The notes under the pieces: generated by a model
Told to the model about the DNA's origin: nothing
Database searches by the model: none
Seen by the model: the letters and a program-made list of their open reading frames with translations, nothing else
In this document: in pieces, positions 1,308 through 33,977 of the stretch
Position numbering within the stretch: the stretch's first letter is position 1
Layout: every line of letters starts with the position of its first letter
Translations under genes and position numbers: made by a program
Assembly (NCBI GenBank): GCA_001275005.1
Contig: JWZX01003083.1
Coordinates: 1-33,977 of the forward strand
Reading direction: 5' to 3'
Source: Chrysochromulina tobinii
Taxonomy: Eukaryota
Length of the DNA stretch: 33,977 nt

Positions 1308-2435
1308 ATGACGGTTGGCGAGTCCTTCCTTGAGTCCCCCGCTCGCCCGACGTCCGTCCTTTCTTCTCCCGCCCCGCTGGGCATAGAGCTGTTCGACCCG
1401 TCTTCACCGTCGTCGCCTTCGCGCTCGCCACGCACGCCTTCTATTGAGTCTGCCCACCATCACCACGACGAGGTGAACTTCGGGAATTACCGGCATGCCT
1501 TGAAGATCAGCGAAGATGCAAGGACCGCAGACAGGCGCGCCTGGCTCAAGGGCGCGCGCACATTTCGCGAGGAGCTCATCACGCGAGAGACGATGAAGCA
1601 GGCGGACATCGACAAGAAGATAGCGATCATCATCAAGAACCGGCCTGAGCCACCGGGCACGCCAAGTTCGCCGCGCGCGCGCCATGGGCCGCGCGACGCC
1701 AAGGCTGTACGCACGCCCGATATCGATTTCTCGTCCGATGTCATGAAGAACTTGACCATCCAGCGCGCGGAGCAGGCGCGGCAGGGCGCCGAGATACTCG
1801 GAGGATGGACGGCCACGGTTGGCAAACTCAAAGCGACGGAGGTGTTCGCGTCCGAGGAGCGCACGGCCAAGGTGCAGGACGCGCTTGCACAGGCGCACAA
1901 CCTCACCTCGCGCCACCACAAGTTTCAGACGCGCAAGGCGCAGTTGCAAGAGCTCGAGCGGTCAGCGAATCTCGTGCAGATGAGAAGGCACGCGAGCGAG
2001 ACGCGGCAGCGGTCTGAGCTCATGGCGCGCATGAAGGCGAATCGCGAGCGCGCGGCCGACCTGCGCGTACACGCGTGGCGCGTGACGATTGCGAGTGGCA
2101 CGGATCGCACGATCCATAATCAGGTGCTCCTGATTGCCTCTGATGACCTCCGATGGGATCCCTCATCAGGTGCTCCATCCATATGAAGCTGATTGCCTCT
2201 GATGACGATCCATAATCAAGTGCCTCTGATGACGATCCATAATCAATTGCCTCTGATGACGATCCAATTGCCCCTGATGACGATCCATAATCAGGTGCTC
2301 CATTCGCCGCGCAAGGGCGTCGGCTTGCCAGAAAGCCCCTGGCCCGTGTACAACCATGTGCCCTCGCCTCGGAGACCCGCCAGCGCGCTGCCCATTCCTT
2401 TGTCGCCTCGGACGCCCGTCACTGAGAGGCATTGA
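1308..2435 (+). CDS. Hypothetical helical/coiled-coil protein, join(1308..2123,2295..2435)
   Basis: ATG at 1308 within ORF 1164..2186. Removing GT..AG intron 2124-2294 joins RTIHNQ to VLHSPRKG...TERH* of ORF 2193..2435. Confidence 0.65.
2124..2294 (+). mobile_element. Introner-like repeat intron (171 bp), CTGAT..ATCAG family
   Basis: CAG|GTGCTCC ... CAG|GTGCTCC. 22-bp direct repeat ACGATCCATAATCAGGTGCTCC at 2109-2130 and 2280-2301. Contains CTGATTGCCT units and CCCTCATCAG at 2160-2169. Confidence 0.75.
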
Positions 2436-4667: not shown

Positions 4668-7101
4668 CTACAACCCGTCCTCCAGCAGCGCGGCTGCAAG
4701 CCGTAAGCGTCTATCCTGGACCAATGCGCTGGGCTCCTCAGTTCCTCGGGGGCGTTTGCCATACTTGGGGGCGTTGGCCATCTTCGGTCCAAGCTTCACA
4801 TCATCAGCACGCGCGGTGACCGGCTCTGTCGTCGTCCTCGAACTGAATGCTTCCATATTTGGGAGCTGCTGCTGCTGCCCCTCCGACGCGCCGTCCCAAG
4901 CGCCTTCCTGCCCGCGAGTCTGCCTGTGGGCAAAGTAGGCATCCTCCACTTCCTCCATCGGTGCGCTCAACGGCAGCCGACCCTCGCGTTCCTCACTGAG
5001 CGCCCATCGCACTCCGACGAGCGCGCGCTCGTACCTGATGAGGGAGGCAATCAGCATGCACTCAGCATGCACTCGGCATGCACTCGGCATACACTCGGCA
5101 TGCACTCGGCATGCACTCGGCATGCAATCACCTGATCCGAGCGAGCGTGGGCCGTTGGGCAGGCAATCAGGCAAACGGGCAGGCGACTAGAATGCAATCA
5201 GCGTACTCGGCAGAGAGACGAGCGAGCGCGGGCCGTTGGGCAGGCAACTCAAGTGGACGATACGCCTTTGCCGCCTTGGCCATCGACGCCTTAAAGTGGT
5301 GCACCTCAGAGTCCTTTAGGAGGGTGTAGCTCGTGCCCGCCTTGCCCGCGCGCGCGGTGCGACCGACACGGTGGACGTACCCCTTGATGTTGGCGGGCGG
5401 GTCGTAGTTGATCACGACACTCACACCCTCGACATCCATACCGCGCGCCATCGCATCCGATGCAATGAGCACGCGCGTCTGCCCTGACTTGAGCCGCTCG
5501 AGCGCGAGGGTGCGCTGCTTCGGAGGCACCGACGAGGAGAATTCGGTCGCGGCGATCCCGAGCATATGAAGCAGTCGTGTGAGACGATGCGTACTCTCCA
5601 AGGAGGAGCAAAAGACGATCACGCGGCCAGACTTGAGGGAGCGGCGTCGAAGACCGCCTCCTCCTTTTCCCACTGCCGCGAGGGCGGCGTCTGCCTCGGC
5701 GTCCTCGGCTTCGTCGTTCAAGCGTACATCTTCGGTCACCTCCGCGGCGCTGTCGTCGTCGTCGTCCTTGTCGTCGTCGTCTCCATCCTCGCCGCCTTCC
5801 ATCACCTCACCCTCTGCTCGTCCGCCCTCCGCCACGTCCTCGGCTTCAGCCTCTTGCGCCTCCGCCTCCAGCAGCCCACGCAGCAGCAGCAACAGCAGCC
5901 TGGGCTTCTCTTGGGCACCGCACGTCAGCATCCACTCCTTGAGCGTGGCGGGCGTCGCGTACCGTGCGCCCGCGACACAAAAGTAGCGTGGATTCACGAG
6001 CTGCAGCGGCGCGAGCTTGGCGGGAGAGCGCGTGAGGGTCGCGGAGAAGAGCAGCTTGAGTAACGGCGCATCCGCCCCCGTGAGCGCCAGCGGCGCGCCG
6101 CGGCTGCGTGCGGCGGCCGAGCCAAGGCGCGCACGCACGGTCTCCGCGGCGAGTGCGGCTGGGGCAGCGAGTGCCGACCGTCCTAATATGGGTGCGGCAT
6201 GGGATGGCCTAATATGGGCGGCGTCGAGGACGCTCCGCAACCAGCCTTGGTAGCCTTGCGACAGCAGCCTATCAGCCTCGTCGACGACTAAGAAGCGCAG
6301 GTGCTGCAGCGTGAAGGGAGCGCCGCTCTGCAGGTGCTCGACCAGTCGGCCGGGCGTCGCTATCACGATGTCCACCGCTGATGTGCCCTCGCCCGCCACC
6401 AAGTCGGCTTCATGGTAGCTACCGGTACTGCTTCCTCCGCTGACTCGCACGAGGCTGGCACGCTCGCGCTCCCACGAGACGCCCTCCTGACCGGCGGCGA
6501 GGCCACAGCGCAGAGGCGTGCCTTCGCAAAGCGTGCAGAACACTCCGTGCACCTGTGCCGCCAGGCCGCGCGTAGGCAGGAGCACGAGCGCGCGCAGCCG
6601 TGTCACGACCCGTGGCAGCAGCGCCTGCACAATTGGCAGCGCGTAGGCGAGAGTCTTACCCGAGCCCGTGGGCGCGCACACGCACACGTCGGCGGCCCGG
6701 CGCGCCGCATGCGCCGCGAGCACGACCGGCACGACCGCCGCCTGCACCGGGAAGCATTGATGCACGCCAAGCCGACCGAGCGCGGCGACAAGCCGCTCGT
6801 CCAGGCCGAGCATAGCCGTACTCGGCGTGCGCGCCTCGATGATACTTGCATGCGCGCGGTGCATCCAAGGCGGCAGCGAGGTTTCGTCCTCCACGCCAGC
6901 CTCCGGCTCGCCCTCTGGCATCAAAGGGTCTGCCGCCTCTTGGCCCTCGTCGTGCTCGGCATCTCCGGGCCCGCTCGCCTCCTCCTCCTCCTCCTTCTCG
7001 TCGTCGGGCAAAAGCCGGGAGTCGGCGCCCTCATCAAAGCCCATGAGCGAATCGCCGACGGTAGGCAAGCCTGCGAAGGCGTCATCCAGGTCGACTTCCA
7101 T
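4668..7101 (-). CDS. DDX51: DEAD-box RNA helicase, DDX51/DBP6-like, complement(join(4668..5034,5207..7101))
   Basis: Q motif FPVQ, APTGSGKT, LPTRGLA, TPGRL, DEAD, SAT, ARGMD, HRVGRTARAG. ATG at 7101. Splicing 5035-5206 gives SAEYERALVGV in frame with ORF 4668..5174. Confidence 0.88.
5035..5206 (-). mobile_element. Introner-like repeat intron (172 bp) in DDX51
   Basis: Minus strand GA|GTACG CTGATTGC ... CTGATTGCCTCCCTCATCAG|GTACG, a 5-bp duplication GTACG. Seven 11-bp units at 5054-5130. 29-bp exon copy at 5138-5166. Confidence 0.85.
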
Positions 7102-7264
7102 TTTCGCACGTTTCCTATGCCGGTCGCGTCGCCTTCGTAGTTCCGCGTTGTGAACAGTTTCTTTAGCCGGGAAAGTGGGGGATGGCGAGCCCGCACTCAA
7201 GAATTGCATCTGTCGACTCCCACATTCCTAACATCAGAGTTCCGGCACACCCGTCAGCGGGTTT

Positions 7265-8722: not shown

Positions 8723-11272
8723 TCAGAACTGCAGAGCATGGCCAATCTCCACAGTGAAAAAGTCAGTGATCCACGTCCGGACGTTATCGGAGATGACGCT
8801 CCAACTCCATCCTTGATTGGCGCGGTCGGCCACACTCATCGCTATCGTCGCCCGTTCGCCATCCTTTTGGCGCTCTGGGTCGTACGAGCCCGGTCCAACG
8901 CCGGGACCCGTCTCGCGGCCGGACCCGCCCAGCGAGTCGCTAGGGAAGCGGGCCTCATGCCCTGTACCCATAAGGATGCCCCCGCTCTGGATATGCGGCT
9001 CAACAGAGGTCATGTTGGGATCGTAGGCACCCACGCCGGGAGAGGCGCTCGGGAGCAACATAGGTCGCTGTTCCGAAGTAGCACGCAAGGCGCTGCTGGC
9101 TCGGCAGCGGTTTGCCTCGTGGCCCATGGGCCGCTGGCGGCCGAATTGATCGACAGTCGGGTTATATTCTGACGGGCCGGGATTACCAGCCCCCATGATG
9201 TCTTGCCGCATCACACGCGCCGTCTGCGCGCCGAAGCCTGCAAATCCTGCGCGGCTCGCGAGGTGGAACGAGGCTGCTGCTTGCTGAATGACTTCGTGGC
9301 CGTCACCACTTTTCATCACGCGGGGGTCGTAGGCCCCAGGGTCGCCCGCGTCCGTCGCGAGCATGTTTCGTCCGTCACTGCGGCACTCACGAGCTGTCAT
9401 GGAGCCAAAGGCACCCATCCCTGCTCGGGCGCTAGCGTTGAAGGTCGAGAAAGCAGCTGCGGCCCTGACGGCAAGATCCGTGGGCAAGCGATGGCCAAAG
9501 TAGGCGCCTGGCCCAGGTGCCTCCTTCTTCTCCCGAACGAAGGACAGATCGAGTGGACGAGCCGAGGCTCCGACACCGAACCCGGCTTCTTTGCTCGCAA
9601 TCGCGCGGCTCATGCTATCCACGACCTTGTTGACGGCCTGAGCGATCGAACCGTTCACCTCAGCGTCGTACGAGCCCGGTCCAATGCCAGGACCCGTCTC
9701 GCGGCCGGACCCGCCCAGCGAGTCGCTAGGGAAGCGGGCCTCATGCCCTGTGCCCATGAGGATGCCCCCGCTCTGGATATGCGGCTCGACGGAGGTCATG
9801 TTGGGATCGTAGGCACCCACGCCGGGAGAAGCGCTCGGGAGCAGCATGGGGCGTTGCAGCGACTCCGAACGGAAGCTCCTGCTGGGCATGGCAAGACGAC
9901 TGCCCATAGCGCCATCGAGAAAGTCGGTGGTCCAAAACCGATTGTATGTCCCTGGAGCGGGCACGTCCAGCCCCATAATCTGTCGTGGCATCTCGCGTGC
10001 TGTGGCGGGTCCGAACGCATACAGCCCAAACTGCGAGCGAGTGTTGAACGATCGGCCCATGTCCGAGGAGATCGTCTTCACCCTGCTCAGGTCATACGCG
10101 CCCGGATCGCCGTTTGGAGCCTCGCAGCGCAGGCGAATGGTCGTGGTCTTGAAGGACGAGCGATGTCCATCGCCACCATTGCTGAGCTGAGATGGACTCC
10201 TTGCCTCATATGCCCCAGGACCGGGCGTGCTCATGTAGTCCATCATGCCGACGCGCTCAAAGGGCAGCTCACGGGCCTTCCATTTTCCGCCAAATGCAGG
10301 GCGGCACAAGCTCATGCGCGCATGGATCTGGGCGGCGGTCTGGGCTATCGTGCCGCTCTTGTCGTCGTACGAGCCCGGTCCAACGCCGGGACCCGTCTCG
10401 CGGCCGGACCCGCCCAGCGAGTCGCTAGGGAAGCGGGCCTCATGCCCTGTACCCATGAGGATGCCCCCACTCTGGATATGCGGCTCGACGGAGGTCATGT
10501 TGGGATCGTAGGCACCGACGCCGGGAGAGGCGCTCGGGAGCAGCTTTCTCGGGCGTTGCGGCGACTCAGAACGGAAGGCGCCACCAGCAGCATCATAATC
10601 AGCTGCAGTACTTGCCATCGGTCGAGGCACGAGTGGGCTGTAATCTGCGGCTCCGGGAGTGTTGTCGCGGACGTCCAGCTTCAAAGTGCGCTCTGTGGAA
10701 CTTCCGAACGCGCCGTGACCAATAGCATTCAAACGGTTGAATGATGATGATGCTTGGGAGCCGACATCCGTGAGATTGTACGAACCTGGGTCCTGACTTT
10801 CTTGCAGGAAAGGGTCGACCTTGGGACGCTGTGACTTTGATCGAAAGGCCGACGAGCCAGCGAGCTGTAATATGCCCGACCCCAGCTTTTGAGGATTGTA
10901 CTGGCCTGGGCCTGGACTGCCCCAACGCTTGGCTACGCGCGCCTTTATGCGCATCTCGTCCTTCTCGGCACGCTTGCTTGGGCTCAAGGTGGGTGACGTA
11001 TTGCGTGCCAAACTCGACGGTGCAGAGCCCTGGGCGATGGGCTTGCGTCGTGCAAACGGCGGTGATTTGGGCGGTGGTGCCAGCCAGACGGGCACCTTCT
11101 CTTTGAGCGGCTGTGTTGCTCCAGTGGGGCTTGCCTCGACGATTGAGGTAGGATCGCCGCTAATCAGTTCGAGGCGCGCCTCCTCCTGCTGCCGCACCTC
11201 TAGCTCCATGATCTCCTTCTCGGCGATGAATTTGGCTTCCAAATCGGCCAATGCGGCCGGAGACATCGGCAT
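8723..11272 (-). CDS. Sperm-tail PG-rich (STPG/SHIPPO-ODF3-like) repeat protein, probably axonemal
   Basis: 849-aa ORF with many PGPGxY / DPGAYD / GPGSYD motifs, each followed by F-x-S/T...R. Confidence 0.8.
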   Translation of the reverse strand: MPMSPAALADLEAKFIAEKEIMELEVRQQEEARLELISGDPTSIVEASPTGATQPLKEKVPVWLAPPPKSPPFARRKPIAQGSAPSSLARNTSPTLSPSKRAEKDEMRIKARVAKRWGSPGPGQYNPQKLGSGILQLAGSSAFRSKSQRPKVDPFLQESQDPGSYNLTDVGSQASSSFNRLNAIGHGAFGSSTERTLKLDVRDNTPGAADYSPLVPRPMASTAADYDAAGGAFRSESPQRPRKLLPSASPGVGAYDPNMTSVEPHIQSGGILMGTGHEARFPSDSLGGSGRETGPGVGPGSYDDKSGTIAQTAAQIHARMSLCRPAFGGKWKARELPFERVGMMDYMSTPGPGAYEARSPSQLSNGGDGHRSSFKTTTIRLRCEAPNGDPGAYDLSRVKTISSDMGRSFNTRSQFGLYAFGPATAREMPRQIMGLDVPAPGTYNRFWTTDFLDGAMGSRLAMPSRSFRSESLQRPMLLPSASPGVGAYDPNMTSVEPHIQSGGILMGTGHEARFPSDSLGGSGRETGPGIGPGSYDAEVNGSIAQAVNKVVDSMSRAIASKEAGFGVGASARPLDLSFVREKKEAPGPGAYFGHRLPTDLAVRAAAAFSTFNASARAGMGAFGSMTARECRSDGRNMLATDAGDPGAYDPRVMKSGDGHEVIQQAAASFHLASRAGFAGFGAQTARVMRQDIMGAGNPGPSEYNPTVDQFGRQRPMGHEANRCRASSALRATSEQRPMLLPSASPGVGAYDPNMTSVEPHIQSGGILMGTGHEARFPSDSLGGSGRETGPGVGPGSYDPERQKDGERATIAMSVADRANQGWSWSVISDNVRTWITDFFTVEIGHALQF
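8879..10544 (-). repeat. Three dispersed ~180-bp near-identical coding repeats
   Basis: Copies at about 8879-9058, 9665-9844 and 10364-10543 encode LLPSASPGVGAYDPNMTSVEPHIQSGGILMGTGHEARFPSDSLGGSGRETGPG(V/I)GPGSYD. Confidence 0.95.
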
Positions 11273-11359: not shown

Positions 11360-11654
11360 TACCGGGTACAGAACTTTCGCCTCCCCGGTAAAAAGTCTGG
11401 CACCGCGGGGAGCCGGGACACACACAATTCACACACAATGACAGTCCCCAAAATTCCCAAACTGTGAGCTGGGCCCCTGGGCATGAGAAACCACACAGTG
11501 TGGAGTCACCATAATTTGGGATTCGAGTTACTAGAGCACTGTACGGTAGTAGAGTCGGTGGGGTTGGTTTTGAGCGCGTTGAGGGGGTTCGTGACATCGT
11601 GAGGTTCGTGTATCTGCCTCGTCCCTCGTGCGTGTCTCCGGTGTTTTTTAACCG
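11360..11654. repeat. Degenerate second copy of the 28597-28837 inverted-repeat element
   Basis: CCGGTAAAAAG..CACCGCGGGGAGCCGGGACACACAC (11385-11425) matches the arm at 28599-28633. A weaker opposite arm CGTGCGTGTCTCCGGTGTTTTTTAACCG lies at 11627-11654. Confidence 0.6.
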
Positions 11655-22363: not shown

Positions 22364-23994
<1,631 letters not shown>

Positions 23995-28596: not shown

Positions 28597-28824
28597 TACC
28601 GGTAAAAGACACCGGGGGAGCCGGGACACACACGGGTAAGCGTTGTAATATTAGAGGATTTGCGGAATAATGATTGTTTCGACCGGTGCTCGTCGTGCGT
28701 CTTGCCCTCATGGCAAATAAACTAAGGCAAATAAACGTGAATGTGAACGTGAACGTGTTGCGGTCGAAACAGCAATACCGGTCCCGTGTGTGTCCCGGCT
28801 CCCCCCGGTGTCTTTTTACCGGTA
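28597..28824. mobile_element. MITE-like element with ~40-bp terminal inverted repeats and TA ends (or paired promoter motifs)
   Basis: TACCGGTAAAAGACACCGGGGGAGCCGGGACACACACGGG (28597-28636) is the reverse complement of 28783-28824 apart from two homopolymer indels. The interior is relatively AT-rich and has no credible gene. Confidence 0.6.
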
Positions 28825-32488: not shown

Positions 32489-33977
32489 TCACTTGCGATC
32501 GATGCCGCTGAGTACCGCATCAAGCACGAGCTCCTTGGCCCGGGCGGCCTTCCGCTCGGCCCTGCTGGTGCTTCCTCGTAATGAGCGGAGGACCTCCCAT
32601 TCTCGTCCCTCCTGGGGGATGAGCAGCTGCCCGGCGCGCTCGCGGAGCGTACCTGATGAGGGAGGCAATCAGACGTCTTCAGAGGCACTCAGAGGCACTC
32701 AGACGTCACCAGAGATCATCAGACGTCATCAGAGGTCGGGTACCGAGCATGGCCTCGGCGGACAGGAAGAAGGCGTCGACGAAGACAGCCTGGCGCTTCC
32801 GGCTGACCTCCTCTGCGTCGGGAGCGCTCTCGATCACACTCACGTCCACATCGAAGGCCACGCCGCGGTCGGCCGCCGCCGCAGCGTCCGACGTGAGCGC
32901 GCTGCTCTCGCGCCAAAAGGAAGGTGGGTCTGCGGCGGGGCCGTTGAGTGGCCGCGTGCGTGGCTCCGCTTGGCGGGAGGCGCGTGCCGCGTTGCCGTCG
33001 GAGTTTTGTGCAGATCGCAGCACGGTCTCGTCAAGTGCGGCCACACCGGTTAGAGTTTCGTCAAAGTAGGGTACGGCGTCCGCCTCCACCACGCCATCTG
33101 CTGCGTCGAAGTCCGCATCGACGCTCAAGTCATCGAGCGGCAGGAAGTCTGCCGTCACGGACTGCGCATTCGTCCGCGAGTTCGACCTCCCCTCCACGCG
33201 GAGCTCGAGCGTCGCGAACACTTTCGCCGCCGCCTCGACCGCCGCCTCCGCCTCCGCCACAGCTGCCTCGGCCGCCACATCGGCCCCCGATCGAGGTGCC
33301 CAAGTTTCGTCCCAAGTTTCGTCCCGTTTCGTCAGCTTGCGGAGCTCGGCGACCCTCCGCCGCTTTGCCTCCACCTCGGCTCCGACTCCGGATGTGACGG
33401 ACGACGGTGACGGTGGCGGCGGCGGCGGCGGTCGCGCCGTCCGGACCGCCGACACAGGCGTGGCCGCCTGTGCGGCTGACGGAGGCGCGGACGAGAGCTG
33501 ACTAGAGGCCAGGGCCCTTTCCGCAGCGCCGCCGACCGCCTCGCCCAGGCTGCGCATGTCCGCAGCGAGTTTTGAAGTTGGTCCCTTGACGGCCTCGACC
33601 AAGTCGGCCAACGGCCCAAGCTGCGCCCCGCGCTGCAGGTCCGTCGCGTACTCCTGCGCAATCTCGCGCGCGAGCTCGCCCACCAGCCCCACGTCCACCC
33701 CGCCGCCGCCTCCAGTGCCCTTGGCGCCGGAGCCCGATAGGCTGTTACCCAGCGCCTCCGCAACGCGGCGAGCTACCATGCGACCCACAGCCTTGGCAGG
33801 CGGCAACACCCCGTAGACGAAAGCGTCGGCTGAGTCCTTTGTAGCACGCTGACCGAGCGCCGCCGCCACTCTCAGCTGCTTCGTCTCCGTCTCCAGCTGC
33901 CGGCGCCGCTGGCGCTCTAGGCGCTGCGCAACGGGTGAGCTCTGCCGTTGGAAAGCGCCGAGCGCCTGGGCGCCACC
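32489..33977 (-). CDS. Hypothetical Ala-rich protein, 5'-partial, complement(join(32489..32652,32744..>33977))
   Basis: Frame is open to the window edge. Splicing 32653-32743 gives AMLGTLRERAGQLLIPQEGREWEVLRSL...GIDRK* with TGA at 32491-32489. Confidence 0.65.
32653..32743 (-). mobile_element. Introner-like repeat intron (91 bp)
   Basis: G|GTACCCGACCT, seven 10-bp CTG-initiated units, then CCCTCATCAG|GTAC. The 25 bp at 32648-32672 are identical to 5030-5054 in DDX51. Confidence 0.85.

Follow-up and report, generated by a model that had tools for sequence, protein, structure and literature searches.

Direct copies of flanking exon sequence in a repeated intron family of a Chrysochromulina alga, including one in the DDX51 intron, and a possible slip-back origin

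The origin of new spliceosomal introns is an open question. In the cited parts of two introner papers, the classes described have short and fixed target duplications. Introner classes 4, 5, 6, 8 and 10 of Symbiodinium and Polarella carry the acceptor and obtain the donor from the target duplication, and their characteristic duplications are 3–8 nt long (bioRxiv 10.1101/2020.10.14.339549). An introner example from Chrysochromulina sp. has a duplication of 4 bp and carries the donor (bioRxiv 10.1101/2022.06.06.494994). Other routes, described in the cited sections of PMC3296678, are intron gain by tandem genomic duplication and the gain of introns while double-strand breaks are being repaired. 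The insertions made by polymerase theta are, in the excerpts of PMC7165422 used here, both direct and inverted and enriched in AT, with first tracts rarely longer than 10 bp and templates typically no more than 30 bp away.

The intron family analysed here resembles the Symbiodinium and Polarella classes, as those excerpts present them, in being a repeated family that carries the acceptor, the donor being supplied by the target duplication. It differs from them in duplications of 4 to more than 30 nt, in a variable body of 10–11 nt arrays and in the exon pieces recopied inside the intron. The layout of the Chrysochromulina sp. example, in the passage cited (10.1101/2022.06.06.494994), is the opposite of that of the present family, which takes its donor from the duplication. 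Among 52 simple introns of the family the target duplications are variable, with 4–34 exact bases, and not of the fixed length of DNA-transposon-type introners. As in the routes of PMC3296678, a duplicated gene segment, or filler DNA with direct repeats on its flanks, turns into an intron or into part of one; unlike what the sections cited describe, the filler is a family repeat, and events of a preferred length recur across many loci. Literature searches brought up no publication on the family or its spacing; term look-ups in PMC12130899, PMC4580454, PMC2784329, PMC3152781 and PMC11282704 yielded nothing on either, and supplements to the introner papers may list the family.

The DNA analysed (the window) is a stretch of 33,977 nucleotides of Chrysochromulina tobinii. 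Its minus strand carries a gene for the DEAD-box helicase DDX51/DBP6, identified by the Pfam domains DEAD and Helicase_C and by named homologues; it is the gene of a Chrysochromulina parva-like alga. The upstream coding exon lies at 5207..7182 (5' end approximate) and the downstream coding exon, placed by RNA contigs and homologue comparison, extends to the stop codon at 4668..5034. They are separated by a GT..AG spliceosomal intron of 172 nt (5035..5206, minus strand), a member of the family CTGATTG...CCCTCATCAG. RNA contigs of the runs X11, X12 and X13 skip positions 5035–5206; the joint rests on these three runs, X14 having no cover at the junction, and GTACG at both ends leaves it ambiguous by five bases. 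The C. parva gene model P0005 matches at 99 per cent over the aligned part and has an identical exon junction, and 21 other listed proteins read the intron start in the same way. In a cluster of proteins 89 per cent identical (P0004), all 15 of the 15 listed members end exactly at the intron position; judging by these sequences, the relative behind the cluster may have an intron there too, one that starts differently. The DDX51 intron is common to close relatives, and more distant haptophyte proteins, possibly derived from transcripts, read through. Elsewhere in the coding region P0002 has a tandem duplication of 20 residues relative to the window (proteins P0002 and P0134 are flagged), and a short repeat with a spacing of 26 nt is found near that region, around 6182–6230.

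On the sense strand the intron opens with the donor GTACG, after which come a family unit, a short piece that echoes exon sequence at 11 of 12 bases and another family unit, which merges into a 29-base copy of upstream exon sequence. Beyond the copy lie the linker GATCAGG and an 11-nt array, and CTGATTGCCTCCCTCATCAG forms the family end. The donor is supplied by a 5-nt duplication of GTACG (5202..5206), of which the second copy (5030–5034) opens the next exon, as the ambiguity of the RNA joint indicates. The array (5054..5126) has 6.6 copies of its 11-nt unit, which includes TGCCGAGT; CTGATG recurs throughout it and is complementary to CATCAG. Intron repeats of 10–11 bp are reportedly described in the Emiliania genome paper. 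The 3' terminal motif of the family (5035..5054) combines a branch-point-like CTGAT with the acceptor AG and has exact matches in at least 130 metagenome stretches.

The copy (5138..5166, minus strand) is identical to its source in the exon (5219..5247), 81 nt apart, at 28 of 29 bases. The only mismatch, a C to T transition at 5148 of the plus strand, falls within a CpG. For the DDX51 intron against 150 nt of exon, the probability of a 29-base match by chance is about 2e-11. The GC content of the copy is 76 per cent, and the 10 bases that precede it on the sense strand do not match those preceding the source. At its start the copy shares TTGCCT, six nucleotides common to the family unit (5161..5166) and the exon (5242–5247), which scores 6 as microhomology on the sense (minus) strand. 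Both the 29-bp copy with its single change and its start at TTGCCT were described in the initial annotation, and both stand. Positions 5177..5188 partly echo this piece of exon at an earlier point (11 of 12 bases against 5238–5249), which can be read from the sequence as a possible aborted round of copying.

Source and copy lie on a single piece in the DNA contigs of four runs (X1, X2, X3 and X9), which are possibly the window's own source. An assembly artefact is hard to reconcile with this, with the one-base difference between the copies or with the intron start shared by 21 other listed proteins, and we regard it as next to negligible. What speaks for it is the protein P0139 (cluster of P0003), whose C-terminus joins the exon source straight to the sequence past the intronic copy, with 81 nt missing, so that the repeat can evidently collapse or be deleted; P0139 may reflect either an assembly collapse or a real deletion of 81 nt. 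The CAG-GT that follows the intronic copy would offer another donor, in phase with the first.

The exact 21-nt family end is present in at least 130 metagenome stretches, indicating many similar introns at unrelated loci; the family motif has no match in viral contigs and none in prokaryote genomes. Using this exact motif, 124 metagenome loci (785 kb) from short-read assemblies were chosen as a catalogue. One of them matches the window without a difference over 621 nt, and pairs that overlap reach 97–100 per cent identity. After de-duplication the catalogue and the window together gave 228 clusters, about 20 of which are probably opposite-strand duplicates. With the family motifs masked, direct copies of the flanks were found for the upstream 150 nt in 42 clusters, for the downstream 150 nt in 31 and for either in 63. 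No copies appeared with swapped flanks (0 of 4478), and motif-free DNA yielded 186 and 188 of 3000; the masked count was used in place of the unmasked one, which gave 12–13 per cent in the swap control. Inverted copies were seen in none of the 228 clusters (masked, score at least 14; one and one before masking), a threshold below which inverted inserts shorter than about 14 nt would escape detection.

A comparison of acceptors in matched geometry, long target duplications included, gave a local repeat at 68 of 168 family acceptors and at three of 32 conventional-like ones, the latter set by pattern only (Fisher 5e-4). Equal frequency in the two kinds of intron, which the initial annotation had named as telling against it, is therefore not what is observed. 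Its suggestion of local copying with microhomology at the junction is borne out as a family-wide trait, and the DDX51 copy is not the rare case it had seemed, with upstream copies in 42/228 clusters and downstream copies in 31/228. A second intron family, with the core TGCTCACCACGGCGC and acceptors ending in CCCCACAG, has a local repeat at 21 of 37 acceptors (Fisher 4e-5 against the same 3/32). It occurs at L001:353–720, L017:2104, L019:6599 and other places, and has long flanking duplications with the same period of 70–85 nt as the first family.

Upstream copies were then analysed in the 30 of 42 clusters that retain at least 6 nt of exon; the other 12 were removed by eye, three as opposite-strand duplicates and nine because the copy starts at the donor or no more than 3 nt from it. 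Donors were placed by eye in 29 of the 30 cases, one of which has no open frame, and the RNA verifies that of DDX51 alone. Twenty-seven copies cross the donor, and DDX51 is among the three that stop short: 12 nt separate the end of its source from the donor, and the full-period continuation through the donor is absent. The view that the copy is not a target site duplication thus holds for DDX51 as it stands, and does not extend to its siblings, where the 27 of 30 crossing the donor read as target or tandem duplications made just inside the intron. Because the siblings behave in this way, truncation or erosion of a donor-crossing copy is the probable origin of the one in DDX51. It had also been asked whether copies always derive from the upstream exon. 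Copies derive from both exons, the downstream one in 31 of 228 clusters, and an upstream-only polarity therefore fails. By our reading of the alignments, 21 of the 31 downstream-flank copies lie inside clusters, directly after an internal acceptor-like motif.

Microhomology at the start of the 30 upstream copies is in excess for the longer classes: at least 3 nt in 14 (5.4 expected) and at least 4 nt in 11 (2.4 expected). Matches of at least 1 nt are at chance level (20 against 19.9), and 10 copies have none. Microhomology is thus a tendency and not a rule. Two neighbouring introns of the locus L012 (sense offsets 10760 and 11111) share the uncommon unit TTGATTGCAC, and both of their upstream copies begin with TCGC after TTGA, which hints at templating between nearby introns.

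These counts bear on polymerase theta, to whose insertions the DDX51 copy had been likened. A templated end-joining scar at a break in the intron would account for a direct copy of 29 bp, within the 3–30 bp range of insertions matching a flank in the excerpts of PMC7165422, and for microhomology above chance; the echo at 5177–5188 looks like an aborted round. In the family, the likeness extends to direct flanking copies of up to about 30 bp that are microhomology-primed and possibly iterative. It breaks down in the orientation and in the tracts: those excerpts describe both orientations and short AT-rich tracts with templates typically no further than 30 bp off, and here 0 of 228 clusters have inverted copies (score at least 14), the matches are 21–190 nt long and GC-rich (76 per cent in the DDX51 copy), the spacing is about 75 nt and two intron families are involved. 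We therefore consider such a scar improbable, and the likeness is not sustained.

For the 30 upstream copies the distance between copy and source ranges from 53 to 161 nt, with a detection minimum of about 14 nt for the match; 22 of them fall at 63–85 nt, a range chosen after inspection of the data, and the median is 74.5. Internal downstream copies behave similarly (19 of 21 at 60–85 nt). With the donors set by hand, the reach into the exon and the offset in the intron compensate for each other (Spearman -0.46, p 0.01), and the spacing has an interquartile range of 13, compared with 23 after permutation (p 0.007). The distances have no frame bias (10, 9 and 11 of 30 by remainder of 3). Repeat periods of 70–79 nt are found in 55 of 164 cases in the first family, in 11 of 36 in the second and in seven of 203 elsewhere, and short periods are the commonest among repeats away from both families. 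A genome-wide bias towards 75-nt duplications was rejected, as repeats away from both families have no such peak. Collapse at the k-mer length is unlikely to have caused the upper edge, exact runs being below 55 nt in 24 of 30.

Simple family introns have a median length of 88 nt, and for the target duplications the spacing can therefore be put down to selection for intron length. Such selection accounts less easily for the 17 copies which start in mid-repeat, 10 of them at 71–82 nt.

Complete tandem repeats account for nine of the 30 events; in the other 21 an exon tail is followed by repeats, by the exon tail again and by different repeats. This incomplete pattern is what the introns' own target duplications leave behind. 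The structure bears on the main rival explanation, plain slippage with selection. According to it, introns rich in repeats undergo ordinary replication slippage that has nothing to do with intron birth. The resulting tandem duplications across a splice site would be tolerated because splicing removes them, and would erode later; an 81-nt duplication would have left the DDX51 copy as its remnant. Consistent with this are the nine complete repeats, the variation in repeat number between relatives and the 8-mer TGCCGAGT of the exon–donor junction, which recurs downstream of the DDX51 copy and in no other of the 228 cluster interiors; as the 8-mer is one base away from a common unit, its sharing is suggestive only. 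The variation is seen in five overlapping pairs of loci, which differ in repeat number (by 80 nt in L002/L004 and 16 nt in L072/L124), and among which none had gained or lost an exon copy. Slippage gives no reason for the spacing of 63–85 nt or for the missing short periods, which are the most common ones away from the families, and in 21 of the 30 events the copy is incomplete and flanked by differing repeats. We judge this explanation unlikely, if still a serious competitor.

An RNA template, either pre-mRNA or the RNA of the element, reverse-transcribed at the site with template jumps, would fit the sense orientation of every copy, the inclusion of unspliced donor sequence and the variable lengths of the duplications. 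Variable target duplications resemble those of target-primed reverse transcription. Copies of both polarities run counter to this origin, as does the lack of any A-tail in the listed introns, and we hold it to be very improbable.

The reading we favour, with a probability of about 0.55, is that the DDX51 copy is one of many direct exon copies in these introns and arose by re-synthesis after a slip-back of about 80 bases. A growing strand ending in a family repeat would slip back by this distance, pair with the exon at TTGCCT and recopy the exon. Each such event would add about 75 nt, made up of family repeats and a re-copy of the DNA just upstream. Events in exons would survive only with CATCAG at the end of the repeat and GT or GC at the start of the re-copy, which would give a new intron with a target duplication of variable length. 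Inside an existing intron, near its edge, this filter would not act, and the re-copy would therefore reach into the exon, often starting at a microhomology. For DDX51 this would mean that the re-copying broke off 12 nt before the donor, or that the missing part was lost later. This also counts against the slip-back reading: DDX51 is atypical, as one of the three in 30 that stop before the donor, and requires a second switch or a later loss.

More broadly, we suggest tentatively, as a possibility that falls short of the reading above, that introns of two unrelated families are made and grown by a copy-back measured in length (about 75 nt) and not by cut-and-paste transposition, the internal copies being products free of the filter. 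A strand that carries added family repeats would go back upstream at a microhomology and leave behind a duplication of variable length. DNA wrapped once round a nucleosome measures about 78–80 bp, and the length of about 75 nt may reflect such a turn.

Besides the DDX51 intron, three further family introns in the window are predicted from sequence. One, with a putative GC donor, lies in a gene named SRP54-type in the initial annotation (23126..23217, plus strand) and is bracketed by a 25-nt duplication (23121–23145 / 23213–23237, 24 of 25 identical). The weaker echo reported there is present, with eight bases 47 apart; the 8-mer is found in one of the 228 cluster interiors, and 34 of 224 unrelated downstream pieces of 60 nt share an 8-mer with the insert, so that the echo may be due to chance. 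The second (2124..2294, plus strand; no RNA joint is listed) has a 22-nt flanking duplication and two further internal copies, at 2205 and 2232, of a 14-nt upstream piece; across 2109–2301 the internal copies of this piece are spaced by 27–48 nt. The third (32653–32743, minus strand) is a simple intron of 91 nt with a short GTAC duplication, across which the frame is continuous. Two other kinds of repeat were noted in the window. Three diverged copies of a repeat of at least 227 nt, spaced 786 and 699 nt, lie within 8873–10584. The two arms of a perfect 23-nt inverted repeat (28614–28636 / 28783–28805) are separated by 146 nt, and 11401–11425 holds an arm related to them; the arms are possibly the ends of a miniature transposon.

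By itself the DDX51 copy is an ordinary-looking spliced-out duplication with no demonstrated effect on the protein. What is new here is the preferred copy spacing of about 75 nt, common to two intron families and not shared by other DNA. Together, the variable duplications, the microhomology junctions and the preferred length of 75 nt point to a replication- or repair-type route. The interesting part is this preferred length of a family-wide process, of which the DDX51 copy is one ordinary instance.
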